Positions 1 to 14,365 of a stretch of DNA of 14,799 nt are shown one piece after another. The notes under the pieces were generated by a model. It saw only the letters and a program-made list of their open reading frames with translations, did no database searches and was not told the origin of the DNA. The stretch spans positions 4,370 through 19,168 of the forward strand of contig DDNL01000009.1 in assembly GCA_002341165.1 (NCBI GenBank). Direction: 5' to 3'. Each line of letters starts with the position of its first letter. The first letter of the stretch is position 1. Source of the DNA: Shewanellaceae bacterium UBA2521 (lineage in GTDB: Bacteria; Pseudomonadota; Gammaproteobacteria; Enterobacterales; Shewanellaceae). The position numbers and the translations under genes are program-made.

Positions 1-485
1 ATACCAGCCAGTAGCATCATACTCACAGACACCTGACCATCCACTTTACCCATGTTGTAAATAAGAAGTGTAATAAGCCAGCTCCCCATGAATGCTGAAA
101 TGGGTATAAGCAGTGTACGGACTTCAATAGGCAAACTAGACAAAAAAGTGCTAAAGAACATAATAGCTAGTGCTGCACCTAAACTTGCACCAGCAGAAAC
201 ACCCATAAGACCAGGATCTGCAAGTGGGTTTTTGAACAAGCATTGCATAATAGCACCGCATAAGGCGAGAAGGGCGCCCATACATAAGCATAAAAGTGTT
301 CTTGGCAAACGAATTTCATGTATGATCAAAGCTGTTGTAGACTGTGAATCAGGCTGAATTATGGATTGGAAAAAATCTTGCCAGTCAATTGCAAATGCAC
401 CTGTCCTGATGGATAGACAAGAACATATCAAGATACTCACACACAAACACAACTGTAATAATTTTTGATGAGCTGAACTAAGCAT
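1..485 (-). CDS. hmuU: Heme ABC transporter permease, FecCD family (HmuU-like); N-terminal 161 codons, continues beyond window start
   Basis: Absent from the ORF track because it runs off the edge. The reverse-strand ATG at 485-483 directly abuts the hmuT stop (486-488). Own translation: MLSSAHQKLLQLCLCVSILICSCLSIRTGAFAIDWQDFF...IIHEIRLPRTLLCLCMGALLALCGAIMQCLFKNPLADPGLMGVSAGASLGAALAIMFF... This carries the FecCD signature (RLPR ... MQ.LF.NPLADPGL.GVS.GA). Confidence 0.85.
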   Translation of the reverse strand, partial: MLSSAHQKLLQLCLCVSILICSCLSIRTGAFAIDWQDFFQSIIQPDSQSTTALIIHEIRLPRTLLCLCMGALLALCGAIMQCLFKNPLADPGLMGVSAGASLGAALAIMFFSTFLSSLPIEVRTLLIPISAFMGSWLITLLIYNMGKVDGQVSVSMMLLAG

Positions 486-1343
486 TTAACCCTCTTTTTT
501 GGTCAATAAAAATGTATAAAAGCGTTGTGCTTCATTTAAACTCGCGATGCCAAAACCACCGAGGAGTGCATGCGAATCGATCACAAAAATCTTTTTCTGC
601 TTGCCTGCAGGCGTTGCTTTAAGTGTTGGAATTTTATGAAAAATAGATTGAGCTTCTTGTTTGGTTTTATAAGATCTATTCGTCACAACGATCACATTGG
701 GTTGCATATTCAAGATCGCTTCATGCGATATCGGCTTATATTCGTTTAAGTGTGCAGCTACATTTATGCCACCAGCCAGCTCTATGATGCGATGCATGGA
801 CGTGTTCTTACCTGCAGCTCTCAGTTTTCCTTGACTATGTTTGAGTAAAAATAACACCTTTAATTTTTTATTTTGGTGCATCTGCTGTTGCAAAAGTCGG
901 TGTTCTTGTGCTCTGACTTTCTGAATTAAAATCCCTGCTTCTTTTGGCTTGCGAGCAATTTTTGCAATAGCTTCAATGCGGTGAATCAGCTGATCGATTG
1001 AATTCCCCGAAGGATACTGCACAACATGAACTCCTACTTTTTTTAATTGTCGTAGTGTATCTTCATTACCCATAGCGCTAGAGCCTAGAAGGTGGGTTGG
1101 TCTAAGTGACAATACACCTTCAGTGGATAACATCCTATGGTATCCAACATCAGGTAGCGGATTTTTTGGCTGCTGACTTGTCGTATCTACACCTACAAGA
1201 GTACTTTTGGCATCTAATGCATAAAGAATGTCTGTGATTGCAGATCCTGCACTCACTATCCGTACATTAGCGTTCGTTTGTGTAGCTCCATCATGACTAT
1301 ATGCAATCATGAGTCCCCAGAATAAAAAAATAAAATGTTTCAT
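486..1343 (-). CDS. hmuT: Periplasmic hemin-binding protein of a heme ABC transporter (HmuT/ChuT/PhuT-like)
   Basis: 285-aa ORF with an N-terminal signal peptide. RIVSAGSAITDILYALDAKSTLVGVDTTSQQP...LPDVGYHRMLSTEGVLSLRPTHLL matches the conserved HmuT/ShuT N-lobe pattern (R.V..GGS.TE..YALG....LVGVDTTS.YP......VGY.R.LSAEG.LSL.P.L.). It is coupled stop-to-start to the permease gene. Confidence 0.85.
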   Translation of the reverse strand: MKHFIFLFWGLMIAYSHDGATQTNANVRIVSAGSAITDILYALDAKSTLVGVDTTSQQPKNPLPDVGYHRMLSTEGVLSLRPTHLLGSSAMGNEDTLRQLKKVGVHVVQYPSGNSIDQLIHRIEAIAKIARKPKEAGILIQKVRAQEHRLLQQQMHQNKKLKVLFLLKHSQGKLRAAGKNTSMHRIIELAGGINVAAHLNEYKPISHEAILNMQPNVIVVTNRSYKTKQEAQSIFHKIPTLKATPAGKQKKIFVIDSHALLGGFGIASLNEAQRFYTFLLTKKEG

Positions 1344-1472
1344 AATGCTCTCGAATCCTCCAAAAAAAGTTAATTTTGTGTTTTTTTCTTTGATTATGCT
1401 TTCAGTTTTTTTTAATTAGGTTTAATTTTTTTTAATAAAAAGTTTCAATAAAATAAATATTGAGCTTTAAAT

Positions 1473-1491
1473 GGAAATGATAACAATTATC
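1473..1491. promoter_or_regulatory. Putative Fur box in the divergent hmuT / hutZ intergenic region
   Basis: GGAAATGATAACAATTATC matches the 19-bp Fur consensus GATAATGATAATCATTATC at 15/19 positions, and 14/16 over the core AATGATAAYMATTATC. It lies between divergently transcribed heme genes. Confidence 0.55.
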
Positions 1492-1574
1492 ACTTGTGTC
1501 ATCAAATTTATTTCTCTAGTATAAAAATAGTATTAGTTGGTCACTATTTTTTTCAAAAAGAGTTTATATTTATT

Positions 1575-2087
1575 ATGAATATTCATGTAAGAAAAAAGTT
1601 AATGGATGAAATACATGACTTTAGCCAAGAACAGCAAACTTTAATGCTATCTACGGTTGATAAATTAAAGCATCCTCACATGAGTTATGCGTCTTTTGTT
1701 TCTCACAAAGATTGCTTTTATGTGCTTATTTCTACTCAAGCAAAACATACTATTAATTTATTAGATAACCCAAAAGCTGCCGTCATGTTAATTCAAGACG
1801 AAGTCTTTTCTAAACAAATATTTGCGCGTAAAAGAGTCACTTTCAATATCGATTCAAGAGTTATTCAGAGAGATACAAAGGAGTGGCATAAATATCTATA
1901 TCTCATGGAAAATAAGTTTGGAAATATAATTCGGCAACTTTCTAATTTAGCGGATTTTCTACTTTTTGAATTAAAAACTGATCAAGGAAGATATGTAAAA
2001 GGTTTTGGTAAAGCTTATAACATAAGTCATGACCCAAATGCTCAGTTTGAGCATGTAAATCGTGGTCACCAACCCATAAATAAATAA
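1575..2087 (+). CDS. hutZ: Heme-degrading/heme-utilisation protein, HutZ/HugZ family (PNPOx-like split barrel)
   Basis: Start moved to ATG 1575, with AAAAAGAG 13-20 nt upstream. The 170-aa product matches remembered V. cholerae HutZ blocks: SYA.FV, FYVLIS, A(R/K)H..NL..NP, I(E/Q)DE...KQ(L/I)FARKR(L/V)TF, FG.II..LS.L.DF.LF.L....G..VKGFG.AY, and a C-terminal H...GH. Confidence 0.85.
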   Translation: MNIHVRKKLMDEIHDFSQEQQTLMLSTVDKLKHPHMSYASFVSHKDCFYVLISTQAKHTINLLDNPKAAVMLIQDEVFSKQIFARKRVTFNIDSRVIQRDTKEWHKYLYLMENKFGNIIRQLSNLADFLLFELKTDQGRYVKGFGKAYNISHDPNAQFEHVNRGHQPINK

Positions 2088-2148
2088 AGGATTCTTTTTA
2101 ATATAAATAGTCTTTGTTACTTATACTCCATTTTTGAGATTAATTTTT

Positions 2149-4440
2149 ATGATGTTTAAAAAAAATAACCTTGCAATCCTAGTAGGATTTACTTTTTGTA
2201 CACCAAAGCTCTTTGCTCAGGAAGTTCAGCAGTTAGATACTGCCCATATTCAAGCTGAACATGTTGAAGAAGAGGATGTTATTGCGCCTCAAAGCCTTGT
2301 GACATCGGACGCTATTGATCGTGATTTGATACAAGATAGTGTAGATCTCTTTAAACATGATTCTGGTGTTATCATTACAGAAGGATCACGAGGTGGTATT
2401 GCCTCTATTCAAGTTCGTGGTCTTGGTCAGGATCGAGTGAAGGTCATTATGGATGGACAGTCACAATCAACTTTTACTGTGAAGGGTGGTTCTGTCCCTT
2501 ATATTGATTCAAGTATGCAGCTTTCTGATCCTGAATTTATTAAACAAGCTAAAGCCATCAAGGGTGCGCAGTCGAGTCGTTATGGTTCTGGAGCTATGGC
2601 CGGTGTTGTTAAAATTGATACCAAAGATCCCGAAGACTTAACGAAAGGTAAACCTTTCGGTGGATACCTTAAATCTGGCTATCGATCCAAAGATGCATCC
2701 TTTAAGCAAACACTAGGGTTGGCGACAGAACATGAATCTTTTAGAAGTTTATTGATGCTATCTTATTTACAAGGTGAAGAATTACAGCGTTCAAGTGATT
2801 TCATCTATCAATCAAATGATACAAAGTATTTAGAAAAAAAGAACCTAAATATCCTAGCTAAAATGGCTTACCGTCTAAATGATAGCCATGATCTTAAAAC
2901 CTATTATCTTTCATCACATGGTGATAATGAATCTGACTTAATCCACACAACGAAAAAAGACTACCATTCTGACGACCAAAACAGAAGATACCAGATAGGT
3001 TTAAGTCACGATTGGAATCAAGACTTAACGGTGGCAGACCATATCAAAACACAAGTGACATGGTCAGAGAAAAAGAATCAACAAAAGACAAGCTGGCTTG
3101 AACTTGGATCTCAAGCTCAAGCTCAATCTCCACATGGGCATGTTCATGGGCATGGTGCAGGTGATCATGCACATGGTACAGCCGGTCATGCACATGGGCA
3201 TGTTCATGCACATGGTACAGGCGATCATGCACATGGTACAGCCGGTCATGCACATGGTGCAGGTGGTCATGCACATGGTGCGAATCAAGCAAAAACAGAT
3301 GTAAAAGATAAGTCTAAGCTTAAGGATTATCGCTATAAATCAACCCACCTTTCTATAAAAATCGATGCGGACAAGAAGAACGACGTTTTTGATACGCATT
3401 ATGGTGTAAGTTTTGATACCATCAAGAATGCGAATGATAATACCGAGTATACGACTGTTGACGGCAAAAGGTCTCAAAGGAATATTTTTTATACACCAGA
3501 AGTTAGCACAAACCTTTATGCGGGATACGTTTCAACGGATATTAAATTGTTCGAAGAACAGCTTATCGTGAAGCCATCGATAAGGTATGACTATGTTGGT
3601 ATCAAGCCCCAGAGAGCATCTTTATCAGCAGCAATCAACAAGAAAACGCCTGATTATACATTTTCGCATGTGAGTAAAGGGCTGGCTTTAGAGTGGTTGC
3701 CGACACAACAACACAAGCTTGTTTTATCTGTCAAGGAAGGTTTTAGAACTCCATCTTATCACGATTTATTTTTCCAATGGGAAAACCCGGCATATCAATA
3801 TGCAGTGGTACCTAGTGCTGATTTAAAAGAAGAGACCGCGATCAATTACGGTATAGATTATACCTATAACTCTTTGCAGTCTCGCACGTCGTTAAGGTTA
3901 TTCTACAGTGATTACGATGATTTTATTGATACAAATTCAACAAAAGAAGATGGTATATCTATACAACGTAATACCAATATTGCTAAAGCAACCATTAAAG
4001 GTATTGAGTTTTCTCATGTTGTTTATTGGCAAAGTGACTTAGCTACAGCAGAAGGATTTTCAACAGGTTTCTCTGCTCAATACTACAAAGGTAAAGATCA
4101 GCACGGAAATCGTCTCAGCAGCGTTTCGCCTTGGTCAATGAATTTAAATCTGAGCTATGATGGCGTAGGCAAGATGTGGGGTACAGGCCTTAAAACAACT
4201 TATACAGCGAAGTCAAGCAGTGTTAGTAAGAATAGCATTGAGATTCCAAGCGTAAAGATGATGGACTTTACCCTTTATTATAAGCCTATCGAGCGCATAA
4301 AATTGACGGCTGGAGTCTTCAATATTTTAGATCAAGAGGTTTACAAATGGACAGAAGTCAAAGATGCAAGTAAGCCTTTGACAGATAGAATGAAGCAAGC
4401 AGGGCGTAACTACGGTCTTTCTATTGCTTACCAATTTTAA
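2149..4440 (+). CDS. TonB-dependent outer-membrane receptor, heme/hemoglobin-receptor-like, with a His-rich insertion
   Basis: Start taken as ATG 2149, giving signal peptide MMFKKNNLAILVGFTFCTPKLFA/QEV. The plug motif is IQVRGLGQDRVKVIMDGQ. FRTPSYHDLFFQWENP resembles the FRAP...H...NPNL heme-receptor signature. The C-terminal barrel strand ends ...GLSIAYQF. Heme-gene context supports the call. Confidence 0.88.
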   Translation: MMFKKNNLAILVGFTFCTPKLFAQEVQQLDTAHIQAEHVEEEDVIAPQSLVTSDAIDRDLIQDSVDLFKHDSGVIITEGSRGGIASIQVRGLGQDRVKVIMDGQSQSTFTVKGGSVPYIDSSMQLSDPEFIKQAKAIKGAQSSRYGSGAMAGVVKIDTKDPEDLTKGKPFGGYLKSGYRSKDASFKQTLGLATEHESFRSLLMLSYLQGEELQRSSDFIYQSNDTKYLEKKNLNILAKMAYRLNDSHDLKTYYLSSHGDNESDLIHTTKKDYHSDDQNRRYQIGLSHDWNQDLTVADHIKTQVTWSEKKNQQKTSWLELGSQAQAQSPHGHVHGHGAGDHAHGTAGHAHGHVHAHGTGDHAHGTAGHAHGAGGHAHGANQAKTDVKDKSKLKDYRYKSTHLSIKIDADKKNDVFDTHYGVSFDTIKNANDNTEYTTVDGKRSQRNIFYTPEVSTNLYAGYVSTDIKLFEEQLIVKPSIRYDYVGIKPQRASLSAAINKKTPDYTFSHVSKGLALEWLPTQQHKLVLSVKEGFRTPSYHDLFFQWENPAYQYAVVPSADLKEETAINYGIDYTYNSLQSRTSLRLFYSDYDDFIDTNSTKEDGISIQRNTNIAKATIKGIEFSHVVYWQSDLATAEGFSTGFSAQYYKGKDQHGNRLSSVSPWSMNLNLSYDGVGKMWGTGLKTTYTAKSSSVSKNSIEIPSVKMMDFTLYYKPIERIKLTAGVFNILDQEVYKWTEVKDASKPLTDRMKQAGRNYGLSIAYQF
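3133..3279 (+). repeat. Coding His-rich low-complexity tract (17 His in 49 aa) with an internal ~60-nt duplication
   Basis: HGHVHGHGAGDHAHGTAGHAHGHVHAHGTGDHAHGTAGHAHGAGGHAHG. The string GATCATGCACATGGTACAGCCGGTCATGCACATGG occurs twice, about 60 nt apart (near 3162 and 3222). This tract generates three overlapping shadow ORFs in the track. Confidence 0.9.
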
Positions 4441-5362: not shown

Positions 5363-6031
5363 GTGTTATGCTCTGTTCAGCCAGATAGTTTTGAAACGCT
5401 TTTGCTAAATATTGAGCACCTTGGTCGCTATGAAACAGCAAAGGCTCCGTCGGCTTACGCAGGTTGATGGCCATTCTTAAAGCTTCGAGCACCAAGTTGG
5501 TGTTTTGGGTAGATTAAATACGCCAGCCAATGACTCGGCGAGAATGCAAATCCGTCACCACCGCCAAATAGCACCAACCTTCTGCGGTTCGCAAGTAAGT
5601 GACATCGCCAGCCCAAGCTTGATTGACAGACTCAGGGTTAAAGCGTTGATTCAACTCTTTTTGAGCTTCTGTTTTGGGTTTAATGAGCGATAAGGGCTTT
5701 TTCGGCGCTGTTTGACCACCAAACCCAGCTTGTTCATGAGACTTCTGGTCTTATAACGGCCAATTTTAAAGCCCTCACGGCGCAAATGCTGCATCATTTG
5801 CCTTGAGCCTAAGCTTTGACGGCTGGCTTTAAAAAGCGCCTTACAACGCGATTCCAGTACTTTTTGGGCAACATAAGGCTGCGATTCTGGCTTCTTGAAC
5901 CAATCGTAAAAGGCGCTGCGACTTACTTTCAAGACCTGACACATCAGCAAAACCGGGTAAACCGCCTGATAAGTCTCAATGAAGCGGTACTTTACTTCAT
6001 TTCTTTGGCAAAAAATGCGCTGGCTTTTTTT
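5363..6031 (-). pseudogene. IS3-family transposase OrfB (rve/DDE integrase), pseudogene
   Basis: Own translation from the A7 site in the -1 frame gives ...KYRFIETYQAVYPVLLMCQVLKVSRSAFYDWFKKP...[10 protein letters not shown]. The frame then breaks at a T5 run (5698-5702; 6 would restore it). Reading resumes as [60 protein letters not shown], followed by an in-frame TAA at 5514-5516. It continues STQNTNLVLEALRMAINLRKPTEPLLFHSDQGAQYLAKAFQNYLAEQSIT and then homology ends. Confidence 0.8.
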
Positions 6032-6282
6032 AAGATTTCATGCTCTTGCTGCAAACGCTTATTTTCACGGCGTAAGCGCATTAATTCAGCGCGTTCTTCG
6101 GGTCTTAAAGCTCCTTCAGCCTGGTTTTTCTCGTACTTGACCTTCCAATTAGAAAGGATTTTTGCGGTCACGCCCACAGTTTCAGAAGCCTCTTTTAGGC
6201 TATAATTATGCTCTAAAACCAGTCTGACTGCTTTGTCTTTAAATTCCTGAGTATAGGTCCTATATTTGCGTTTTTCTGTCAT
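5992..6282 (-). CDS. IS3-family transposase OrfA (HTH)
   Basis: Start taken at ATG 6282-6280, with GAGGTG 4 nt upstream. MTEKRKYRTYTQEFKDKAVRLVLEHNYSLKEASETVGVTAKILSNWKVKYEK...LRRENKRLQQEHEILKKASAFFAKEMK is the canonical IS3/IS911 OrfA pattern, including the leucine-zipper end and the A7 frameshift window. Confidence 0.8.
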   Translation of the reverse strand: MTEKRKYRTYTQEFKDKAVRLVLEHNYSLKEASETVGVTAKILSNWKVKYEKNQAEGALRPEERAELMRLRRENKRLQQEHEILKKASAFFAKEMK

Positions 6283-6341
6283 GATCACCTCGGATTGAGT
6301 GTTTATTGTCCACCATTTAAATGTCCGGTTCAATTAGACCA

Positions 6342-6431
6342 TAATAGTCTTATATTTGCGTTTTTCTGTCATGATTACCTCGGGTTGAGTTTTTATTATC
6401 CACTATTTAAATGTCCGGTTCAATTAGACCA
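6342..6431 (-). mobile_element. Solo left end of a second, related IS3-family copy (IR, 5'UTR and about the first 9 orfA codons)
   Basis: 6351-6431 repeats 6261-6341 with 5 mismatches in 81 nt, at a 90-bp period. It includes the same TGGTCTAATTGAACCGG terminus (ending 6431) and ATGACAGAAAAACGCAAATAT. It stops where the full copy's terminus begins. Confidence 0.75.
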
Positions 6432-6444
6432 TAATATAGCCCAA

Positions 6445-6474
6445 AAACCTGTAAATACCCTTATTTACAGGTTT
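6445..6474. terminator. Terminator-like hairpin between the IS ends and the five-gene operon
   Basis: Perfect 12-bp stem AAACCTGTAAAT / ATTTACAGGTTT with 6-nt loop ACCCTT. The T-run is longer on the minus strand (AGGTTTTTGG) than on the plus strand (GGTTTAG). Confidence 0.45.
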
Positions 6475-6518
6475 AGTAAGATATTGTGTGATGTAAATCG
6501 AGGATTAGTTATTATTAT

Positions 6519-6547
6519 ATGACTTATAGATACACTTAACATAAAAT
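6519..6547 (+). promoter_or_regulatory. Candidate sigma70-type promoter for the five-gene operon
   Basis: ATGACT (6519-6524), a 17-nt spacer, then TAAAAT (6542-6547), about 40 nt upstream of ATG 6588. Hexamer matching in AT-rich DNA is weak evidence. Confidence 0.25.
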
Positions 6548-6587
6548 ACCGCTTAAGTTGTTGTTTTTAAACGAAAAAGAGGTCGTT

Positions 6588-7682
6588 ATGGTGAGTTTTC
6601 TCCGTATTTATAGTGTTTTGGGATTAATGGTAGTAACTTCGGTATTTGCTGAAACTAAAGAGCAGCAAACGAAGCGAACTCTATTACCTATGCACCAATA
6701 TTTATCTCAAGATGAATTATGGTTATCAGCTAAAGATGACATGCATGATAATGATATTAAAACCGTTGCAGTTTATTTCAATGGGCGCACTACACAGGAT
6801 GTCACTCAAGGTCAAGTTGATACGTTTCAATATGCCATTGAAAATAAAATCCAAAATACGGGTTTTACTGTTCGAACATGTATTGAATGTACCAAACAAC
6901 GCGTCCATTTAAGTAAGAAAAAAATAAAATACAAAACCGGTATAGAAAACAACCAAGAACTGCGTTCTTTAGGTAAAAATATTAACGTCGATGCTTTTTT
7001 AGTCTGGCGTTTATCTAAAAACTTCGATGGCTATGATTTAAATATGAAGATTATTAATGCACACACAAATAAGGTTGTGTGGATTCGTAGTTTTCAAGCA
7101 GATACAGCAGCTAAAGAAATCAAAGAGATTAAATATCCTTCACAATGGGGAGTTGCTATTGGTCACTTAGGTTTAAAAGGTGAAGCAAATATTCCTTTCA
7201 ATCCAAATATTGATGGTAGTGGTCAGTGGAAAGATCGTTTTAGCACGGTTCGCGATATCAGTATTCGTTACTACACGCGTCACAAGCCAGGTGAAAATCT
7301 TCATTACGCTATTATCGGTAACTTTTTTATGAGCGTTCCAGAAGCAGACCAAACTGCTAAGGACTTGAAAGGTCTGGGCAAAGCTGACTTTTCTGTACAA
7401 GGCGTTGGTCTTGAAGGACGTGTTTTATACAACTTTTCTCAGGACACTTTTCTAAATCCAAGTGCCTATGTTGGTGTTGGTATTTCCAGTGTAAATGAAA
7501 GACAAAAAATAAGTGCACGAACAGGGTTTGAATTTGCCTTCATGGAAAATGCGTTTGTTGATGTTGGCCTCATTTATATTGACCCTGTTGAGTACGAGTT
7601 CAAAGAGAACAATTGGTCGCAAGATAAAGCAAAATTTGCTGACTCAATCGGTACAGATTTTACCATTGGTATAAGGTTTTAA
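6588..7682 (+). CDS. Secreted protein, 364 aa: FlgO/CsgG/LpoB-like alpha/beta N-domain plus putative C-terminal outer-membrane beta-barrel-like domain
   Basis: Start at ATG 6588, with AAAGAGG 5 nt upstream. Signal peptide MVSFLRIYSVLGLMVVTSVFA/ETK. The N-domain pattern is TVAVYFNG...TFQYAIENKIQNTGFTVRTC...LGKNINVDAFLVWRLSKNFDGYDLNMKIINAHTNKVVW. This resembles the AV.PF.N ... L...G.F.VV.R ... LGADa.l.G.v......y.l...lid..tg.vvW fold family. The C-terminal half has alternating-hydrophobic strands and ends ...DFTIGIRF with a terminal Phe. Confidence 0.5.
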   Translation: MVSFLRIYSVLGLMVVTSVFAETKEQQTKRTLLPMHQYLSQDELWLSAKDDMHDNDIKTVAVYFNGRTTQDVTQGQVDTFQYAIENKIQNTGFTVRTCIECTKQRVHLSKKKIKYKTGIENNQELRSLGKNINVDAFLVWRLSKNFDGYDLNMKIINAHTNKVVWIRSFQADTAAKEIKEIKYPSQWGVAIGHLGLKGEANIPFNPNIDGSGQWKDRFSTVRDISIRYYTRHKPGENLHYAIIGNFFMSVPEADQTAKDLKGLGKADFSVQGVGLEGRVLYNFSQDTFLNPSAYVGVGISSVNERQKISARTGFEFAFMENAFVDVGLIYIDPVEYEFKENNWSQDKAKFADSIGTDFTIGIRF

Positions 7683-7689
7683 GGTGAAG

Positions 7690-8193
7690 ATGATGAAATT
7701 AAACACACTTTTAATTATGACGATGGTCGCTTTAACCGCTACAGCGGCGTCGGCTGAAGAAGCGAGTTCAACGTCTGAAAAACAGCAGAAAAAATCAAAG
7801 ATGATGAATGTGAATGTGAAAGGTCAAGGCAACATGTATAACTCGGATGTTGATTTTGATTTAAACGATCCAAACGTCATCGTTACGATTGAAACAGATG
7901 AAACAGATGAAACAGAAGACAGTATGTTCGATGAGAAAAAAGCGAATAAATTGCATAGTAAAGCTCAAAAGTTAGCGCGAACGGGTCGTTACCAAGAAGC
8001 CTTAACTTTGCTTAAAGAAGCTGAGACTTTAACAGAAAACCCAGCAAAAATTTTATCGTTGCAAGGGAGCGCTCTATACAAATTAAATCGAATTGATAGT
8101 GCGAAAGATGCGTGGAATGAATCACTACGACACGACTCAAAACAGCCTGAAATTAAACGGATGTTGTCTTGGTTAGAGAAGGAGAAGTCATAA
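7690..8193 (+). CDS. Periplasmic TPR-like protein, ~167 aa
   Basis: AAGGTGA overlaps the upstream stop. ATG at 7690 (or 7693). Signal peptide MKMMKLNTLLIMTMVALTATAASA/EE, then an acidic linker with ETDETDETED. Two TPR-like helical pairs follow: ANKLHSKAQKLARTGRYQEALTLLKEAETLTENP and AKILSLQGSALYKLNRIDSAKDAWNESLRHDSKQP. Confidence 0.6.
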   Translation: MMKLNTLLIMTMVALTATAASAEEASSTSEKQQKKSKMMNVNVKGQGNMYNSDVDFDLNDPNVIVTIETDETDETEDSMFDEKKANKLHSKAQKLARTGRYQEALTLLKEAETLTENPAKILSLQGSALYKLNRIDSAKDAWNESLRHDSKQPEIKRMLSWLEKEKS

Positions 8194-9842
8194 TGAGACA
8201 GGTTAAACATATAATTTTATGGGTATTGCTCGTATCTTGTAGCGCTATGGCACAAGACAATACATCGTTAAAACTAAAACAAATGTCGTTTTCGGCAGAG
8301 CTAGAAAGTCGTTTAAACAGCGATGTTGAGCGAGTTATTGGAACCAATAAGCACATTTTATCGGTGCGCTCTGAATTTGTTTATGATGCAAAAACTGCAT
8401 CAAACAAGACTGATTCGATCGATATGGATATATCGGATGCACCTGATTTACCTGGATTATCGGGTATGCCGGCTATCGATGAGCCGAAACCAGCTAAAAA
8501 AGCAGTAAAAGAGCCAATGATTCGTTCGTTTAATACGAAATTAATTTTGGACCAGAGTGTGACCGCTGAACAAGAACAGTTATTACGTGGTTTGTTACTT
8601 CAGAAATTAGAGTACGACCCTATGCGTGGTGACCAATTTAGCATAACGCGTGCAGAACTTGATACAGCATCAGCTGTTGATGAGATTCAATCCTTATGGG
8701 ATGAGTACTGGCCTTTAATAGCTGCCTTAGCTGCTTTATTACTATTGTTACTTATTTGGTTCATCGTACGTCGTTCATCGAAAAAGAAAGATGCTGATGT
8801 TGCACCGGTAACATTAGATAAACCAACTTCGCCAGAAGCATTGCTTGATATGAAAAAAGGTGAGTTAAAAGCGATTCGTGAAAAGCTGGTTAAACAAAGC
8901 TTAAGTGAGCCTGAAAAAACAAAAGAAGTGATGAGCAGCTTGAGTTTAAATGAGCAGAACTTGCCTATGTTGTCGTCAACATACCAAGAGCTTGGACGTG
9001 CTTTATTTACATCGATGTATCCAACTTTGGTACCCAATATTCCAAGTTATTTGAAGTATTTAGAAGAAAATCCAACAGATTACGATGGTTTAGTACGTCA
9101 CTTAACCGATTTAAATCATTTGCTTTCAGATGCGCAATCATCGGATCAATTTGAAAATAAAGTGAAGCCTTTTGGATTCTTAGAGCGCATGACGGATAAT
9201 CAAATCCGTTGGGTACTCGATGACGAATCAGATCGTGTGAAAGCGGTTGTATTATGTCAGTTAAGCACAGACAAAGCGTCTAAATTGCTAACAACTTTTA
9301 ATGCCCAGACGCAAACACAATTAGCCATTGAGATTGCTCAGTTTAAATCGATGCCGATGACAACCTTTAATGAAGTTGCTGCATCATTAGCTGTAAAAGC
9401 ACGTTCAGTGCCAGATTTTAATACGATTGCTGTTGATGGCACACAATTACTTATTAAGATGTTAGATAGTATGAATTTATCGCAAGCAGAAGCTTTGGTT
9501 TCTCAGTTGAAATCGAGCTCGCCAGATATCTATCTAGATCTTCGACAAGTGTATTACATGTTTGAAGACATCTTGAGAACACCTGCGAATGTATTGAGCA
9601 ATCACTTACGTACGATGGAACCAAAAACGTTAGCCTTAGCCCTTTCAGAATTTACGGAAGAGCAAGTGGGTAAAGTATTATCGTCATTCCCTGAGCGTTT
9701 TGTTGCGATGTTGAAGCAAGAAATTCAGCAAGTAACGGATTTAGATAAAGGCAATGTTGAATCTGCTAAGCAGCAAGTCACCTTAGTTATACGTGAAGCG
9801 TTGAAAAACAAGCAGTTCAGTATGAATGATTTAGAGGTGTAA
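8193..9842 (+). CDS. Membrane-anchored FliF-like ring-building-motif / FliG-like (middle + C-terminal domain) fusion protein, 549 aa
   Basis: ATG 8193 overlaps the upstream TAA (TAATG), with GAAGGAG upstream. Signal peptide or lipobox MRQVKHIILWVLLVSC-SAMA-QD. The periplasmic segment 8301-8660 is FliF RBM3-like. One TM helix YWPLIAALAALLLLLLIWFIV (8706-8768) is followed by RRSSKKK. The cytoplasmic segment 9168-9839 matches FliG_M (PFGFLERMTDNQIRWVLDDESDRVKAVVLCQLSTDKASKLLTTFNAQTQTQLAIEIAQ). It also matches FliG_C (FEDILRTPANVLSNHLRTMEPKTLALALSEFTEEQVGKVLSSFPERFVAMLKQEI...VESAKQQVTLVIREAL). Confidence 0.65.
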   Translation: MRQVKHIILWVLLVSCSAMAQDNTSLKLKQMSFSAELESRLNSDVERVIGTNKHILSVRSEFVYDAKTASNKTDSIDMDISDAPDLPGLSGMPAIDEPKPAKKAVKEPMIRSFNTKLILDQSVTAEQEQLLRGLLLQKLEYDPMRGDQFSITRAELDTASAVDEIQSLWDEYWPLIAALAALLLLLLIWFIVRRSSKKKDADVAPVTLDKPTSPEALLDMKKGELKAIREKLVKQSLSEPEKTKEVMSSLSLNEQNLPMLSSTYQELGRALFTSMYPTLVPNIPSYLKYLEENPTDYDGLVRHLTDLNHLLSDAQSSDQFENKVKPFGFLERMTDNQIRWVLDDESDRVKAVVLCQLSTDKASKLLTTFNAQTQTQLAIEIAQFKSMPMTTFNEVAASLAVKARSVPDFNTIAVDGTQLLIKMLDSMNLSQAEALVSQLKSSSPDIYLDLRQVYYMFEDILRTPANVLSNHLRTMEPKTLALALSEFTEEQVGKVLSSFPERFVAMLKQEIQQVTDLDKGNVESAKQQVTLVIREALKNKQFSMNDLEV

Positions 9843-9844
9843 GC

Positions 9845-10627
9845 ATGATCTCCTTTAGTAACATATTTGGATTCTTATTAGCGATTGGACTCATATGTGG
9901 TTCAATCATGATGTCGACAGACAACTATTTGTTGTTTGTCAGCATCTCAAGTTTGATTATCGTTGTGGGTGGCTCTTTTGCAGCTTCTCTGGTTGGTTAC
10001 TCATTTCCGTTGGTATTCAGCGCCTTAAAAGGTATTTTACAAAACCTTATGATTGAAGATAACGACATGAAAACCAAGCACATGTCAATTCGACGTATGA
10101 CCGAGTGGAACAACACGTTTCATTCAGGCGGTATCACTGAGTTAGAAAACTCATTAACAGAAAAAGAAAAGAAAGATTCTTTTATCAAGCTAGGTATCGA
10201 TTTAATCGGTACAGGCTACAAAGGTGAAGAGTTACAAGCACTATTGGAAGAAAGCAATGAAAGCCAATCCATGCAAGACATGCGTCATGCTGAAGTGTTA
10301 AATACTTTAGCTAACTTCGCACCGGGTTTTGGTATGGTTGGTACGTTAATCGGTTTAATCGTGATGCTAGATAATTTAAGTGGCGATATGGCGGTACTAG
10401 GAAAAGGCTTAGCGGTTGCTCTTCTTACAACCTTTTACGGTGTTATTTCAGCGCAATTATTTTTTAAACCAGCTTCTATGCGTGTACAACGTCGTGTTGA
10501 GATGGAAGCACATCGTCGAGAAATGCAAATCAGAGCTTTTATGATGATGACGACTAAACGTCCTTCTCTTCACGTTCAAGATCATATGAATGGTTATTTA
10601 CCCTTTAATAAGCGCTTGGAAGATTAA
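9845..10627 (+). CDS. MotA/PomA-like stator A subunit (MotA_ExbB proton-channel family), 260 aa
   Basis: GAGGTG lies upstream and there is a 2-nt gap after the preceding stop. The protein has four TM segments with a ~100-aa cytoplasmic loop between TM2 and TM3. The conserved core is LANFAPGFGMVGTLIGLIVML...MAVLGKGLAVALLTTFYGVISAQLFFKPAS, including prolines at the positions of E. coli MotA P173 and P222. Confidence 0.8.
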   Translation: MISFSNIFGFLLAIGLICGSIMMSTDNYLLFVSISSLIIVVGGSFAASLVGYSFPLVFSALKGILQNLMIEDNDMKTKHMSIRRMTEWNNTFHSGGITELENSLTEKEKKDSFIKLGIDLIGTGYKGEELQALLEESNESQSMQDMRHAEVLNTLANFAPGFGMVGTLIGLIVMLDNLSGDMAVLGKGLAVALLTTFYGVISAQLFFKPASMRVQRRVEMEAHRREMQIRAFMMMTTKRPSLHVQDHMNGYLPFNKRLED

Positions 10628-10629
10628 TC

Positions 10630-11274
10630 ATGGCTAAGAGCAGAAAGAAAGTTGCACTAGAAGAGAGTAATAGTTGGTTACTGACGTACAGTGATGTTGT
10701 CACTTTATTGGTCGCTTTCTTTGTACTTTTAATTGCAACGTCTCAAGTAGATGAAGGTAAGTTGGAAGATGTTAAGCAAGGGTTATCAATAGTGTCGGAT
10801 TCAGAATCACAAACACCGATGCAAGATTTAAGTGAGCAAGTAGAAACGATCATTAAAGAGCAAGAGTTAGCATCAATTAAAGTTAAAAAAGTCATTGATG
10901 GTATCAAAATCGAACTTGATAGTGAAAACTTGTATGAATCTGGATCAGCATCTTTAAAGCCCGAAGGAAAAAAGATTCTCGTTGAGTTTACCAAGGCTAT
11001 TAATAGTGTTGATTTGGATCATCGTAACATTGTGATTGAAGGTCACAGTGACGATGTGCCAATCCGTAACGCTGAATTTCATAACAACTGGGAATTATCC
11101 TCAGCTCGCGCTATTGAAGTGACGTTACATCTTATTGACTTAGGTGTTGACAAATCTAAGCTACGAGCAGTTTCTTATGCTGATTCTCAGCCTAGAGCAA
11201 ATAAGGAATTACCAATCGCGGAGCAGAGACAACAAAATCGACGCGTTGTTATTTACATAAAACGAGCGATATAA
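10630..11274 (+). CDS. MotB/PomB-like stator B subunit with OmpA-like peptidoglycan-binding domain, 214 aa
   Basis: 2-nt gap after motA-like. The N-terminus SWLLTYSDVVTLLVAFFVLL carries the channel Asp in the MotB context (..TYADLMTLL..). The C-terminal OmpA-like domain reads YESGSASLKPEGKKIL...IVIEGHSDDVPIRNAEFHNNWELSSARAIEV...QNRRVVIYI. Confidence 0.8.
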   Translation: MAKSRKKVALEESNSWLLTYSDVVTLLVAFFVLLIATSQVDEGKLEDVKQGLSIVSDSESQTPMQDLSEQVETIIKEQELASIKVKKVIDGIKIELDSENLYESGSASLKPEGKKILVEFTKAINSVDLDHRNIVIEGHSDDVPIRNAEFHNNWELSSARAIEVTLHLIDLGVDKSKLRAVSYADSQPRANKELPIAEQRQQNRRVVIYIKRAI

Positions 11275-11298
11275 ATTAGCGGTTTTTGATATCCAACA

Positions 11299-11322
11299 GT
11301 ACGAAAACATTCGTTTTCGTAC
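11299..11322 (+). terminator. Hairpin downstream of the operon (possible terminator, weak U-tract)
   Basis: Perfect 10-bp stem GTACGAAAAC / GTTTTCGTAC with loop ATTC, 25 nt after the motB-like stop. It is followed by ATTCTCTG rather than a clean T-run. Confidence 0.45.
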
Positions 11323-11363
11323 ATTCTCTGTCAATACGTACACCTTTTTAGTACCAGTAAAAC

Positions 11364-11878
11364 GGCTCCGTTGCAAAAATTTACTTCGTTTTGCTTAAAT
11401 CATTGCCATCTTTACTAAAAAGAGAATTGCCTTTCTATGAGACGCACTTCTCCTAAGATGCCTTGATTTCGAAGCCATACATTCATCTGTTTCTTTCGAA
11501 ACATTCGCATCACTTCAAATCCTTTTAAGGTTGCAAAGGCTGTCTTCATGGATTGAAAACCTCGGGTAGGCTTAATCATTCTCTTTAGCTTACCATGATC
11601 CGACTCAATCCTATTATTCAAATATTTGACGTGCCTGTGCTGAATGATTTGACGACAGACCCCCTCTTTTTTAGAGCTGATAGAGCAGGTGCATAAGCTC
11701 GATCTTTATCGGATTCAAAACGCGGATTTAATCGCTTAGCTTGGTAGATAGAAGGGTGTGCATCAATAATACCTTGAGCAATCTCTTTCACTTTAAAGGG
11801 TTGATAGGGATGTTGCTTTAAAATTTGGAAAATTTGATCGGTTTGACTTAACTTTGACATATCAAGCTTATGCATCAA
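11364..11878 (-). mobile_element. IS6-family (IS26-like) insertion sequence remnant: one terminal IR plus a frameshifted 3' part of the transposase gene
   Basis: GGCTCCGTTGCAAA (11364-11377) matches the IS26 terminal repeat GGCACTGTTGCAAA at 12/14, in the orientation expected downstream of a minus-strand tnp. The other end is missing, and the M66 gene starts at 12002. Confidence 0.7.
11415..11725 (-). pseudogene. IS6-family DDE transposase, C-terminal fragment with a frameshift
   Basis: ...NPRFESDKDRAYAPALSALKK (frame 1) then EGVCRQIIQHRHVKYLNNRIESDHGKLKRMIKPTRGFQSMKTAFATLKGFEVMRMFRKKQ...GEVRLIERQF (frame 2). This parallels remembered Tnp26: PRFINTDKAPAYGRALALLKREGRCPSDVEHRQIKYRNNVIECDHGKLKRII..LGFKSMKTAYATIKGIEVMRALRKGQ...GEMRLVSRVF. 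The frame switches at the homopolymer block 11660-11672. The first ~50 codons of track ORF 11618-11878 are not clearly IS6-like. Confidence 0.7.
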
Positions 11879-12001: not shown

Positions 12002-14365
12002 ATGTTAAATACTAAGAATTATATATATTTTATTTTTCTTTTTATATTAGGCTGTGCAGACAGTTCTGAATTTAATATTATTGAAGAAATGCAAGGACAA
12101 CCTGCTCAAGGAGGACAACCTGATCAAGGAGGACAACCTGATCAAGGAGGACAACCTGACCAAGGTGGACAACCTGATCAAGGAGGACAACCTGACCAAG
12201 GTGGACAACCTGACCAAGGAGGACAACCTGACCAAGGAGGACAACCTGACCAAGGAGGACAACCTGACCAAGGAGGGCAACCTGACCAAGGAGGGCAACC
12301 TGACCAAGGAGGGCAACCTGACCAAGGAGGAAGCAACTCGAACCCTCAAAAATTTATTTTTTTCAACCAAAACAATCTTGAAAGTGATACCACAGGAGCT
12401 TTAAGTGGTACCGTGCACTTTGCTCAAAGCACAATCATGCCATCTAAAAATAAAATAAAAGATGATATCCAACCGCACCTTGTTTCTCAGCGTAAAGCTT
12501 TAGTTCTATTTAAGTCTCCAGATTTAGCAGAAGATAAAAACTTAAAAATGAGTATCTATGATAAAAATAATACACTTATTTATCAAAGTAATATGAACCA
12601 TCCCTCGAAATTACCTGCTATTGAGGGGGAATCTATAGAACCTATTTCTTTCAAAAATTTTGAACCTAATCAAACTCTAAATCTCAATACTCAAGCCCAA
12701 TTAAATGATCTTAAAGAAGATCTTTCGGGACAAAGATTAAGCTATTTCTTTAATACATTTGACTTTATTCATGTTCAAACCCAAGATGGAATACATATCG
12801 ATGACTTTCATCTACCTCTTCTCGCTAAAGGTTCTGAAAAGCATATACGTTTTTCATCTAGAGCTGGCTATGATTCAACCATTTACTTTTCAGGCTTAAA
12901 AAGATCCCTTAAAACGAATTTTGTCTTCGATTTTAAGTTCCAGAATCAAACTTGGTACATGAAAAGTCATATGAATCGTATAAAATACGGTTATTTTTGG
13001 AGTGCCCCCTTACCTAAGCAACATGTAAAACCTGGTATAAGTATTCGATTTACGCAAAATGGAGAAAATGGTCTGCTCAGTGCTCATGACATCAAAGTAG
13101 GTCCTGAAATCGAGTTACTTTTACACACCATTGACTTAGGGTTTCTGACTCCTTATCGAGATGAGTTTGACTTTCAAAAAAAAGATAAAAATCATATTGA
13201 GTATTATCAAACTATTCCCATAACAAAACTCATTGTGTCACGATATGAACCTCAACACTTTAAGACTGTAGGCTTACCCGATGGAACAGTCTACAACAGT
13301 AAAAGTGCAACCGACGGCGGTGTCTATACAGGTGATATGCGAAAAATTGGAAAAATTCTTATATCACATGGTATTAATTTAGCTAATTATGGTCTGACTT
13401 CATCTCATCCAACGAGTGAAAGTCCGCACAAATATATGGCTAATCAGATTACAATTCATAACTCTCAAGGTATCTATACAGATAAAGACTCAAAAGCATC
13501 AAAAAAAGTGATTCATGGCTTATCTGGAGGCAATGGTATGCTTACCTTGTCCGATTCTGAAGGTAATGAATTCAGTCATGAAATGGGGCATGCACTAAGT
13601 TTAGGACATTACCCAGGTGGCTTTGAAAGAAGTGTGCATCGCCCAGCACATATGATCAACTCAACTTGGGGGTGGGATAGTGTTCGTAATGAATTTACAC
13701 CTAATTTCGAGCATTATCCTACGAATAAACCTACCAAATATGATGGAGGCGCGAAAGATAAAGATAAAGGGAAGACTGTACAGCCTTTTCATGGACATAG
13801 TTTTGGCAAAGACTCTATGGGAGATGGAAGTCCACTCTATTCGAATCATTACACTTTATTTACTCCCTATACCATGAATAAAATGCAAAAATTTTTGGAG
13901 CGAACACCTCGCTTTGATAAGAATTCATCCACGGGCTTTTCTGTATGGGATGCTAATAAACAGGAATATAGAGAGGCTGCTAATAACGTATCTTCTTCAC
14001 GTAGAAAAGACTTCGGTGTACCTGTAGTCACTTTAGTGGGATATTATGATCCAACTAATACCATTAAATCCTTTGCCTATCCTGCTTTATACGGTAGCTA
14101 TGGTCATACTTATTATAGCTTCCCTAAATGGTTCAATAGCAAATGTCAGCTCACCGTCAAAAACGCTCGTAGAAAAAAAGTAACATTCTTCTTAAATGAC
14201 CGTGTCATTTTAAGAAAAAATATGAATAAATATCATGTCAATATTGCGCAATCATTTAAACCTACGAGTTACGATATAAAATGTCATGGTAAATTTGTTT
14301 TGCCTTCGTTTGCTATTAAACCTAAGAAATTTAATTTAAAAACCCATATTGTAGAAAGCCCTTAA
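12002..14365 (+). CDS. M66-family zinc metalloprotease lipoprotein (StcE/TagA-like mucinase family), 787 aa
   Basis: Lipoprotein signal MLNTKNYIYFIFLFILG-C (lipobox ILGC). The motif NEFSHEMGHALSLGHYPGGFERSVHRPAHMINSTWGWD parallels StcE NEFSHELGHNYGLGHYVDGFKGSVHRSAENNNSTWGWD (HExxHxxxGH). Further StcE-like blocks are SSTGFS.W, FGVPVVTLVGYYDP, YPALYGSYG, CQLTV and MNKYHVNI. Confidence 0.85.
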   Translation: MLNTKNYIYFIFLFILGCADSSEFNIIEEMQGQPAQGGQPDQGGQPDQGGQPDQGGQPDQGGQPDQGGQPDQGGQPDQGGQPDQGGQPDQGGQPDQGGQPDQGGQPDQGGSNSNPQKFIFFNQNNLESDTTGALSGTVHFAQSTIMPSKNKIKDDIQPHLVSQRKALVLFKSPDLAEDKNLKMSIYDKNNTLIYQSNMNHPSKLPAIEGESIEPISFKNFEPNQTLNLNTQAQLNDLKEDLSGQRLSYFFNTFDFIHVQTQDGIHIDDFHLPLLAKGSEKHIRFSSRAGYDSTIYFSGLKRSLKTNFVFDFKFQNQTWYMKSHMNRIKYGYFWSAPLPKQHVKPGISIRFTQNGENGLLSAHDIKVGPEIELLLHTIDLGFLTPYRDEFDFQKKDKNHIEYYQTIPITKLIVSRYEPQHFKTVGLPDGTVYNSKSATDGGVYTGDMRKIGKILISHGINLANYGLTSSHPTSESPHKYMANQITIHNSQGIYTDKDSKASKKVIHGLSGGNGMLTLSDSEGNEFSHEMGHALSLGHYPGGFERSVHRPAHMINSTWGWDSVRNEFTPNFEHYPTNKPTKYDGGAKDKDKGKTVQPFHGHSFGKDSMGDGSPLYSNHYTLFTPYTMNKMQKFLERTPRFDKNSSTGFSVWDANKQEYREAANNVSSSRRKDFGVPVVTLVGYYDPTNTIKSFAYPALYGSYGHTYYSFPKWFNSKCQLTVKNARRKKVTFFLNDRVILRKNMNKYHVNIAQSFKPTSYDIKCHGKFVLPSFAIKPKKFNLKTHIVESP
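12092..12331 (+). repeat. 18-bp in-frame tandem repeat encoding QGQPAQ-(GGQPDQ)x12-GG
   Basis: Twelve full units lie between 12110 and 12325, at an exact 18-nt period. They differ only at synonymous positions (GAT/GAC, GGA/GGT/GGG), with variants clustered along the array. The array produces two long shadow ORFs in the track. Confidence 0.95.

Follow-up and report, generated by a model that had tools for sequence, protein, structure and literature searches.

A flagellar-type stator pair in a conserved five-gene operon with a FliG-like fusion protein in a Shewanellaceae bacterium

The stator units closest to the pair described here are those of flagellar motors. In the scheme of Puente-Lelievre et al. 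2025 (PMC12505986), stators of the FIT class are recognized by a cytoplasmic domain expanded to four or more helices, a third transmembrane (TM) helix without a break, a plug, and an OmpA-type peptidoglycan-binding domain, and these features are equated with flagellar motility. The same paper cites two charge pairs between flagellar MotA and FliG, R90 with D289 and E98 with R281. Additional stator genes named motA2 (VF_A0186) and motB2 (VF_A0187) are present in Vibrio (Aliivibrio) fischeri, and these names have been in use since 2013 without an assigned function. In the passages of Brennan 2013 (PMC3948606) that concern them, motA1 or motB1 insertion mutants were nonmotile, motA2 and motB2 insertion mutants showed normal soft-agar swimming, and motA2B2 was not activated by FlrA and lay outside the FlrA regulon. 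Those passages, found by term search, treat the two genes solely as flagellar motor paralogs dispensable for soft-agar swimming, leave the linked fusion, TPR, and outer membrane-like genes undiscussed, and propose no function. We describe an orthologous pair, MotA2 and MotB2, encoded in a 14,799-nucleotide stretch of contig DDNL01000009.1 (the window, in which all positions are numbered unless a locus is named) of Shewanellaceae bacterium UBA2521, whose genome comprises 2.28 Mb in 95 contigs and is 96% complete. The pair closes, on the 3' side, a conserved operon of five genes predicted from the sequence. With moderate confidence, we interpret MotA2/MotB2 as a flagellar-type stator paralog that drives the FliF-RBM3/FliG-like fusion protein encoded upstream, and the cassette probably powers an envelope machine other than the flagellum.

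MotA2, an A subunit of the MotA_ExbB family by profile, sequence, fold, and tree, is encoded on the plus strand at 9845 to 10627, and its 260-amino-acid (aa) open reading frame was found exactly where a preliminary description of the window had placed it. Hydrophobic segments lie at residues 7 to 25, 29 to 47, 157 to 175, and 183 to 201. The AlphaFold2 model, built from an alignment of 77 relatives (mean pLDDT, 95.1), has helices at residues 4 to 24, 34 to 51, 54 to 69, 74 to 103, 106 to 123, 127 to 176, and 182 to 236. The cytoplasmic domain between TM2 and TM3 spans about 100 aa in the model and consists of helices 54 to 69, 74 to 103, 106 to 123, and 127 to about 150; TM3 belongs to the single unbroken helix 127 to 176. 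Segments and model concur with the earlier proposal of four TM helices and a TM2-TM3 loop of about 100 aa. The two prolines that had been singled out, P160 (FAPGFG) and P209 (FFKPAS), align to P173 and P222 of Escherichia coli MotA and are invariant among the 77 relatives. In the alignment, MotA2 has no E. coli-type insertion in its cytoplasmic domain.

The B subunit, MotB2, is encoded on the plus strand at 10630 to 11274, as claimed, and has 214 aa; Pfam profiles, PDB matches, and the tree identify it as a protein with plug and OmpA domains. Its single TM helix carries D22, which aligns to D32 of E. coli MotB and D24 of PomB, in agreement with its proposed role as the channel aspartate, and the preceding tryptophan is kept. 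The OmpA-like domain also described earlier is recovered by Pfam OmpA (61 bits, residues 102 to 200), with residues aligned to E. coli MotB D197 and R258 retained. The proposal of an amphipathic plug was borne out in part: Pfam MotB_plug matches residues 11 to 53 with 54 bits, but the hydrophobic moment of 1.15 was equaled by 19% of shuffled sequences, and an amphipathic helix judged by this moment is not significant. The best PDB sequence matches of MotB2 are MotB and PomB. MotB2 is shorter by about 95 to 100 residues than E. coli MotB (308 aa) and this genome's PomB (313 aa), a difference that corresponds to a very short linker between plug and OmpA domain.

Sequence, profile, fold, and tree agree that the pair is flagellar type and not of the Exb/Tol or Zorya type, as the preliminary description had it, and its assignment to flagellar-type stator architecture is secure on sequence and model. 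Among NCBIfam models, MotA2 matches those for flagellar motor protein, PomA, MotP, and MotA at E values of 1e-35 to 1e-20, compared with 6e-4 for ExbB and 8e-3 for TolQ; MotB2 matches MotD, MotB, and MotS at 1e-43 to 1e-28. The scores stay far below the equivalog cutoffs (best A score, 122 bits versus 237 to 394; best B score, 149 versus 283 bits). In a PDB sequence search, MotA2 matched solely flagellar MotA/PomA chains at an E value of ≤1e-7, the remainder being chance dUTPase matches at 0.75, and no ExbB, TolQ, GldL, or ZorA chain appeared at an E value of ≤1. Foldseek ranked PomA/MotA structures from 1 to 23 (TM-scores of 0.68 to 0.87), with ExbB/TolQ from rank 24 (TM-scores of about 0.4 to 0.5; E values of about 1e-2). 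By BLASTP, MotA2 is identical over its full length to this genome's PomA at 27% and to E. coli MotA at 24% of residues, whereas only the TM3-TM4 core aligns with ExbB (56 to 61 aa, 31 to 32% identity). That ion channel core is what MotA2 recognizably shares with ExbB, TolQ, and ZorA as members of the MotA_ExbB superfamily. In a 54-row maximum likelihood tree, the ExbB/TolQ outgroup separated from all MotA-like proteins with 100/100 support.

Membership in ExbBD/TolQR was rejected on the NCBIfam, PDB, Foldseek, and tree results and on the OmpA domain of MotB2; E. coli ExbD and TolR, at 141 to 142 aa, are too short to hold such a domain, as the earlier argument had assumed. Membership in Zorya ZorAB was likewise rejected. 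The PADLOC ZorA profile, with 590 positions, bears out the expectation that ZorA is much longer than the 260 aa of MotA2, and its match to MotA2 reached just 13.9 bits (E value, 0.004) over 88 of these positions. MotB2 shares the MotB-like layout of ZorB and scored 73 bits against it, and the cassette had no further PADLOC match beyond ZorA and ZorB.

Among known systems, the pair was compared with PomA/PomB, the Na+ polar stator of Vibrio. MotA2 superimposes on it with TM-scores of 0.76 to 0.81 (PDB 8BRD) and 0.68 to 0.69 (8ZYV) and shares the four TM helices, both prolines, and a cytoplasmic domain of four helices that lacks the E. coli-type insertion; the B subunits share the aspartate, the plug, and the OmpA domain. 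By sequence and model, MotA2B2 belongs to the PomA-like, four-helix subgroup (TGI4) of FIT proteins, since it lacks the E. coli-type insertion and has the structural features of the class (PMC12505986). MotA2 differs from its own genome's PomA in its low identity and its separate clade (support, 97/99), the B linker is about 100 residues shorter, and MotA2B2 adjoins a private FliG-like protein whereas pomAB adjoins ispA. Residues in TM3 and TM4 proposed to bear on ion selectivity were also compared. T167, T195, and T196 of MotA2 match the PomA triad T158, T185, and T186, which is conserved in Na+-driven units and has alanine at two positions in H+-driven units (PMC10374538). Because of this triad, the coupling ion is probably Na+. 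The pointer is a weak one, because the triad is nearly invariant in every PomA-like relative sampled, which speaks against reading much into it.

On the plus strand of the window, motA2 and motB2 follow three other genes, all five closely packed with spacings of 1 to 3 bases or overlapping. Gene 1 (6558 to 7682) is an open reading frame of 374 aa, or about 364 to 374 aa, as the start is likely near 6588, and encodes a secreted protein with a single N-terminal hydrophobic segment. It had no Pfam or NCBIfam match; its atlas neighbors include LpoB/CsgG and outer membrane protein beta-barrel families, which we take only as a lead, and the protein is probably an outer membrane protein with an LpoB/CsgG-like N domain. 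Orthologs occupy the equivalent place in Aliivibrio, Moritella, Bermanella, and Sericytochromatia. Gene 2 (7684 to 8193) encodes a small secreted TPR protein of 169 aa (Pfam TPR_2, 2e-8) with an N-terminal hydrophobic segment, and its place within the cassette is conserved. Gene 3 (8193 to 9842) encodes the fusion protein. A terminator-like hairpin at 11299 to 11322 on the plus strand (10-pair stem, consensus match only, weak T run) begins 25 bases past the motB2 stop codon and probably marks the 3' end of the operon.

We define the cassette as a gene set in which TPR and outer membrane-like genes precede one for a membrane-anchored FliG_M/FliG_C protein and a MotA2-clade pair follows it directly, which is the arrangement in the window. 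The core of the earlier argument, a flagellar-type stator beside a FliG-like protein outside any flagellar locus, stands in this form, with the canonical flagellar genes elsewhere in the genome. The gene order of the window is repeated in loci L010 to L013, L032 to L034, L118, and L121, and two Sericytochromatia loci (L052 and L068) have the same five genes ordered fusion, TPR, outer membrane-like, A, and B. In Aliivibrio finisterrensis, Moritella, Bermanella, and several metagenome-assembled genomes (MAGs), the five genes stand amid unrelated flanks. The locus of the closest relative (L118; MotA2 96% identical) has 89% nucleotide identity to the window over exactly 6554 to 11278. No window homology to the L118 locus was found outside this interval, both ends of which lie inside transposase brackets.

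These brackets are an IS3-type transposase fragment (HTH_Tnp_1 and HTH_21; 5651 to 6333, minus strand) upstream of the cassette and an IS6/IS240 DDE transposase fragment (11415 to 11621, minus strand) downstream of it. Their presence on both sides would suit a cassette that is a decaying, functionless remnant between insertion sequence (IS) elements in a small genome, as would the replacement of a key arginine by histidine, described below, and the rarity of the cassette. A sample of 150 genomes from the same GTDB family yielded no ortholog at an E value of ≤1e-40, a result that is uninformative about origin, and only a handful of carriers were found among 400 sampled genomes of the class. However, the five reading frames are intact and their order is conserved across phyla. 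Relative to L118, dN/dS for genes 1 to 5 was 0.24, 0.05, 0.10, 0.057, and 0.09 (dS, 0.28 to 0.98), and by these ratios all five genes are under purifying selection. When three seawater metatranscriptomes were compared with window positions 6300 to 11500, short contigs with 92 to 99% identity matched parts of genes 1, 3, 4, and 5, and one contig (9724 to 9874) runs from the fusion gene into motA2. Decay is therefore a very improbable account of the locus.

The partner that we propose for the stator, encoded directly upstream of motA2, is a membrane protein of 549 aa with Pfam FliG_M (1e-16) and FliG_C (5e-18) matches. It has a signal peptide and a TM helix at about residues 171 to 190, and its AlphaFold2 model, from a shallow alignment of ten sequences (pLDDT, 73), shows a periplasmic domain before this helix and an all-helical cytoplasmic part after it. 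The periplasmic domain is predicted to be alpha-beta-beta-alpha-beta with a disordered insert between two strands. Foldseek placed FliG at ranks 1 to 13 with 213 to 340 aligned columns, 7 of the 13 being full-length FliG chains aligned over 316 to 340 columns, and FliF MS-ring RBM3/S-ring chains at ranks 14 to 31 (E values of about 2e-3). Pfam YscJ_FliF_C had no match in the window's fusion protein, and the likeness to FliF is solely one of predicted fold. On this model, the protein resembles a FliF-RBM3-like periplasmic domain joined by a TM helix to cytoplasmic FliG N-, M-, and C-like domains. The joining of these parts in a single chain is shared with the MS-ring-FliG rotor in its engineered Vibrio FliFG form (PDB 8Z4D). 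In contrast to that construct, the cassette fusion is natural and much reduced, with no detectable RBM1 or RBM2; relative to the flagellar MS-ring/FliG rotor, its collar-equivalent region is disordered and the FliM-binding motif is lost. Literature on a natural FliF-FliG plus MotAB cassette was limited to Brennan 2013, engineered fusions, and surveys, and our searches turned up no published description of the cassette in its natural form or of the rotor-like protein.

To compare the residues of the stator-rotor contact, the fusion was aligned against E. coli FliG and this genome's own FliG. At the FliG R281 position, every cassette copy compared has R or K, with R in the window. The D289 position holds D or E except for Ala in Sericytochromatia and Leu in the gammaproteobacterial genome G410, with E in the window. 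The K264, D288, and R297 positions are not retained. The FliM-binding EHPQR motif is degraded in the window fusion to E-S-D-R, and its R160, Arg in canonical FliGs, is replaced by Glu here and in most cassette copies, by Ala in Sericytochromatia and G410, and by Asp in Magnetoovum. On the stator side, the E98 position of the window MotA2 is Glu. At the position of MotA R90 (PomA R88), the window protein and the 96%-identical relative both have a histidine (His93), in contrast to the conserved Arg of V. fischeri MotA2; the other cassette orthologs compared mostly have Arg or Lys there, with Gln in the two Sericytochromatia loci and Glu in G410. Most cassette pairs compared combine R/K and E at the MotA R90 and E98 positions with R/K and D/E at the FliG R281 and D289 positions. 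By these alignments, both torque charge pairs are retained in most cassettes and the link to FliM and the switch is lost. In Sericytochromatia (L052 and L068), Gln at the R90 position goes with Ala at the D289 position, so that one pair is neutral on both sides, and this paired loss may reflect covariation. In G410, Leu at the D289 position goes with Glu at the R90 position.

MotA2B2 is an extra copy and not the flagellar stator of this genome. The canonical PomA (256 aa) and PomB (313 aa) genes adjoin ispA on another contig, and the genome further contains FliM, FliF, six matches of flagellin type, and a canonical FliG (about 355 aa). The possibility that the pair is the host's only flagellar stator, displaced by IS activity, was rejected on these grounds. 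A different possibility is that MotA2B2 assists the polar flagellum of this organism as an auxiliary stator, used under another load, ion, temperature, or surface contact, with the neighboring genes serving as flagellar accessories. Auxiliary stators of this kind have parallels in MotCD/MotAB of Pseudomonas and the paired PomAB sets of Aeromonas. The full set of flagellar marker genes and the presence in the pair of every structural hallmark of a flagellar stator are consistent with such a role. So are alphaproteobacterial relatives of the pair that have no private FliG-like partner, some of them beside genes for methyl-accepting chemotaxis proteins (MCPs). The V. fischeri genes provide evidence on both sides. 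MotA2 of the window is 62% identical to the representative of the 90%-identity cluster that contains Aliivibrio fischeri MotA2 (Q5E140, AAW87256), and direct BLASTP against that protein (Q5E140/VF_A0186) gave 61% identity over 258 residues, 260 aa being the length of both; the MotA of the A. finisterrensis cassette falls in the same cluster. On RscS overexpression, motA2 and motB2 of V. fischeri go down together with flagellar genes (PMC10441365), as would be expected of an auxiliary stator; however, the normal swimming of the mutants and the position of the genes outside the FlrA regulon, as given in the passages cited above (PMC3948606), argue against it. A further argument against it is that the cassette supplies a FliG-like protein whose charged residues match those of the stator and whose FliM-binding motif has been lost.

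Further evidence against a flagellar role comes from carriers without a flagellum. In three Gammaproteobacteria, G179 (2.2 Mb in one contig; 98% complete), G410 (1.9 Mb in one contig; 99% complete), and G449 (3.1 Mb in 810 contigs; 93% complete), and in G555, a Margulisbacteria MAG of 1.8 Mb, the fusion gene adjoins a MotA2-clade pair. Profile searches for Flagellin_N and FliM gave no match in any of the four, and because of this the module cannot serve a flagellum in these carriers. The fusion is the sole FliG_C-bearing frame in the three gammaproteobacteria, which therefore have no second FliG, whereas G555 has a second such frame of 367 aa. Two of these genomes are single contigs of 98 to 99% completeness, and we regard an auxiliary flagellar stator as an unlikely explanation of MotA2B2. 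The five-gene order of the window recurs in G410. The G179 locus (L120, 4524 to 11906) consists of TPR, fusion, A, and B genes followed by MoxR AAA ATPase, DUF58, and VWA genes, a set of the Bat/MoxR type, and has no outer membrane-like gene upstream of the module.

In the trees, the window MotA2 groups with the proteins of the Aliivibrio, Moritella, and Bermanella cassettes in a clade of Gammaproteobacteria. The larger MotA2 clade is supported by an SH-aLRT of 99 in a 91-row tree and by 97/99 in the more careful 54-row tree, and the B-subunit tree recovered the same grouping with a support of 89. It contains the five-gene cassettes of Gammaproteobacteria and Sericytochromatia and the fusion-plus-stator modules of three other gammaproteobacteria. 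Its sister (91/81) is a clade of this genome's PomA, E. coli MotA, and flagellar-cluster stators from Planctomycetota and Gracilimonas, and a Halomonas/Pseudomonas group branches outside in the 54-row A-subunit tree. Nesting of the MotA2 clade within proven flagellar stators was not established, the deeper nodes having supports of 89/36 and 91/81. We also rejected the idea that a FliG-like gene stands beside every MotA2-clade pair, as a number of pairs, about 40 of them from Alphaproteobacteria, have no such gene nearby. These orphans adjoin genes for MCPs, Mur ligase, glycosyl hydrolase, and similar proteins; the pairs at L020 (23 to 1396; G475, a gammaproteobacterium) and L040 (4009 to 5724; Thalassospira) lie directly downstream of MCP genes. 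In Candidatus Magnetoovum chiemensis (L028, 7001 to 9939), the gene after a MotA2-clade pair encodes a protein of 409 aa with cyclic-nucleotide-binding and FliG_C domains and no TM helix. A Marinimicrobia variant (L030, 7001 to 10884, and L072, 5992 to 9829) has MotA, MotB, FliF-like, and FliG proteins encoded in this order by separate genes with several TPR genes flanking; the FliF-like protein has 472 to 478 aa (YscJ_FliF_C), FliG has 310 aa with N, M, and C domains, and the MotA branches outside the MotA2 clade. The MotA of L048, from a MAG labeled Flavobacteriaceae, is nearly identical to that of alphaproteobacterial L057 (tree branches of 0.045 and 0.035), and this stator is probably a binning error rather than a Bacteroidota protein.

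Several of these observations weigh against the interpretation of MotA2B2 as the stator of a private, nonflagellar rotor. The complete-looking flagellar gene set of this organism leaves room for a conditional flagellar role, and the soft-agar assay in V. fischeri, in the part of that study concerned, covered one condition only (PMC3948606). The about 40 alphaproteobacterial pairs of the clade have no FliG-like neighbor, and clade membership alone consequently does not imply a private rotor. Each of four alphaproteobacterial genomes tested encodes one canonical FliG and two to five MotB_plug paralogs, so that the MotA2-type pair is an extra one there as well. His93 stands in the window MotA2 in place of the arginine of the R90-D289 pair. 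The metatranscriptome contigs give a thin hint of transcription, which DNA carryover or close relatives could also explain. Finally, the ring and the rotation proposed for the cassette are predictions from sequence and model.

If MotA2B2 works as flagellar stators do, five A subunits would surround two B subunits (a 5:2 complex), and MotB2 would be anchored to peptidoglycan through its OmpA-like domains. Ion flow past Asp22 of MotB2 would turn the A pentamer, and the cytoplasmic domain of MotA2 would push the FliG_C-like domain of the fusion, with contact through the flagellar-type charge pairs MotA E98-FliG R281 and MotA R90-FliG D289. The RBM3-like domain may build a ring, and the driven ring would carry no FliM/FliN switch, export gate, or rod. 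Force or rotation might then pass, more speculatively, through the periplasm to the TPR and outer membrane-like proteins.

The same genes could be arranged in another way, with the pair acting as in Ton/Tol systems: output would run through the periplasmic part of MotB2 or the TPR protein to the outer membrane protein, and the fusion would be a regulator or scaffold. Such an arrangement would fit the envelope proteins, both TPR and outer membrane-like, that are always co-encoded, the unusually short MotB2 linker, and the lack of rod, export gate, or filament genes linked to the cassette. We nevertheless consider it quite improbable. MotB2 keeps a complete OmpA-type anchor, including the equivalents of MotB D197 and R258, which indicates a static anchor rather than a TonB- or TolA-like transducer; MotA2 has a large cytoplasmic torque domain without counterpart in Exb/Tol proteins, to which its fold is only distantly similar; and most cassette pairs compared keep the charged residues by which MotA2 would contact the FliG_C-like domain.

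A private rotor driven by MotA2B2 thus remains our preferred interpretation. A broader one is that MotA2B2, the fusion, and the TPR and outer membrane-like proteins make up a stand-alone, ion-driven rotary or force-transmitting envelope machine that has no export apparatus, rod, hook, or filament, is kept by swimming as well as flagellum-less bacteria across several phyla, and is derived from or sister to the flagellar motor core. We offer this tentatively, its chances falling somewhat short of even, and give it that much weight because single-contig genomes without a flagellum carry the module.

The flanks of the cassette in the window are of other kinds. A heme uptake cluster at 3 to 4440 encodes a FecCD-type permease, a periplasmic binding protein, a HutZ-like heme utilization protein, and a TonB-dependent heme/hemoglobin receptor (TIGR01786, 345 bits). 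Past the downstream IS fragment, at 12002 to 14365, lies the gene for a 787-aa M66 (StcE/TagA-like) metalloprotease with StcE beta-sandwich and TagA C-terminal domains.

FIT-type stators, with their torque domain, plug, and OmpA anchor, are now taken as diagnostic of flagellar motility (PMC12505986). The pair described here has all of these features and differs from that scheme in its place in what is probably a nonflagellar cassette, which is also present in genomes without flagellin. Database labels such as flagellar motor protein or chemotaxis protein MotA on genes of this kind can therefore mislead predictions of motility. Should the cassette prove to be a working motor, no smaller rotor-stator set of the flagellar type would be known; it would be a second use of FliG-MotA torque generation and would provide a tractable system for studying the origin of the flagellar motor core and the capacities of half a motor. 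Such work could draw on the genetics of V. fischeri, an amenable organism and presumed carrier of the whole cassette.

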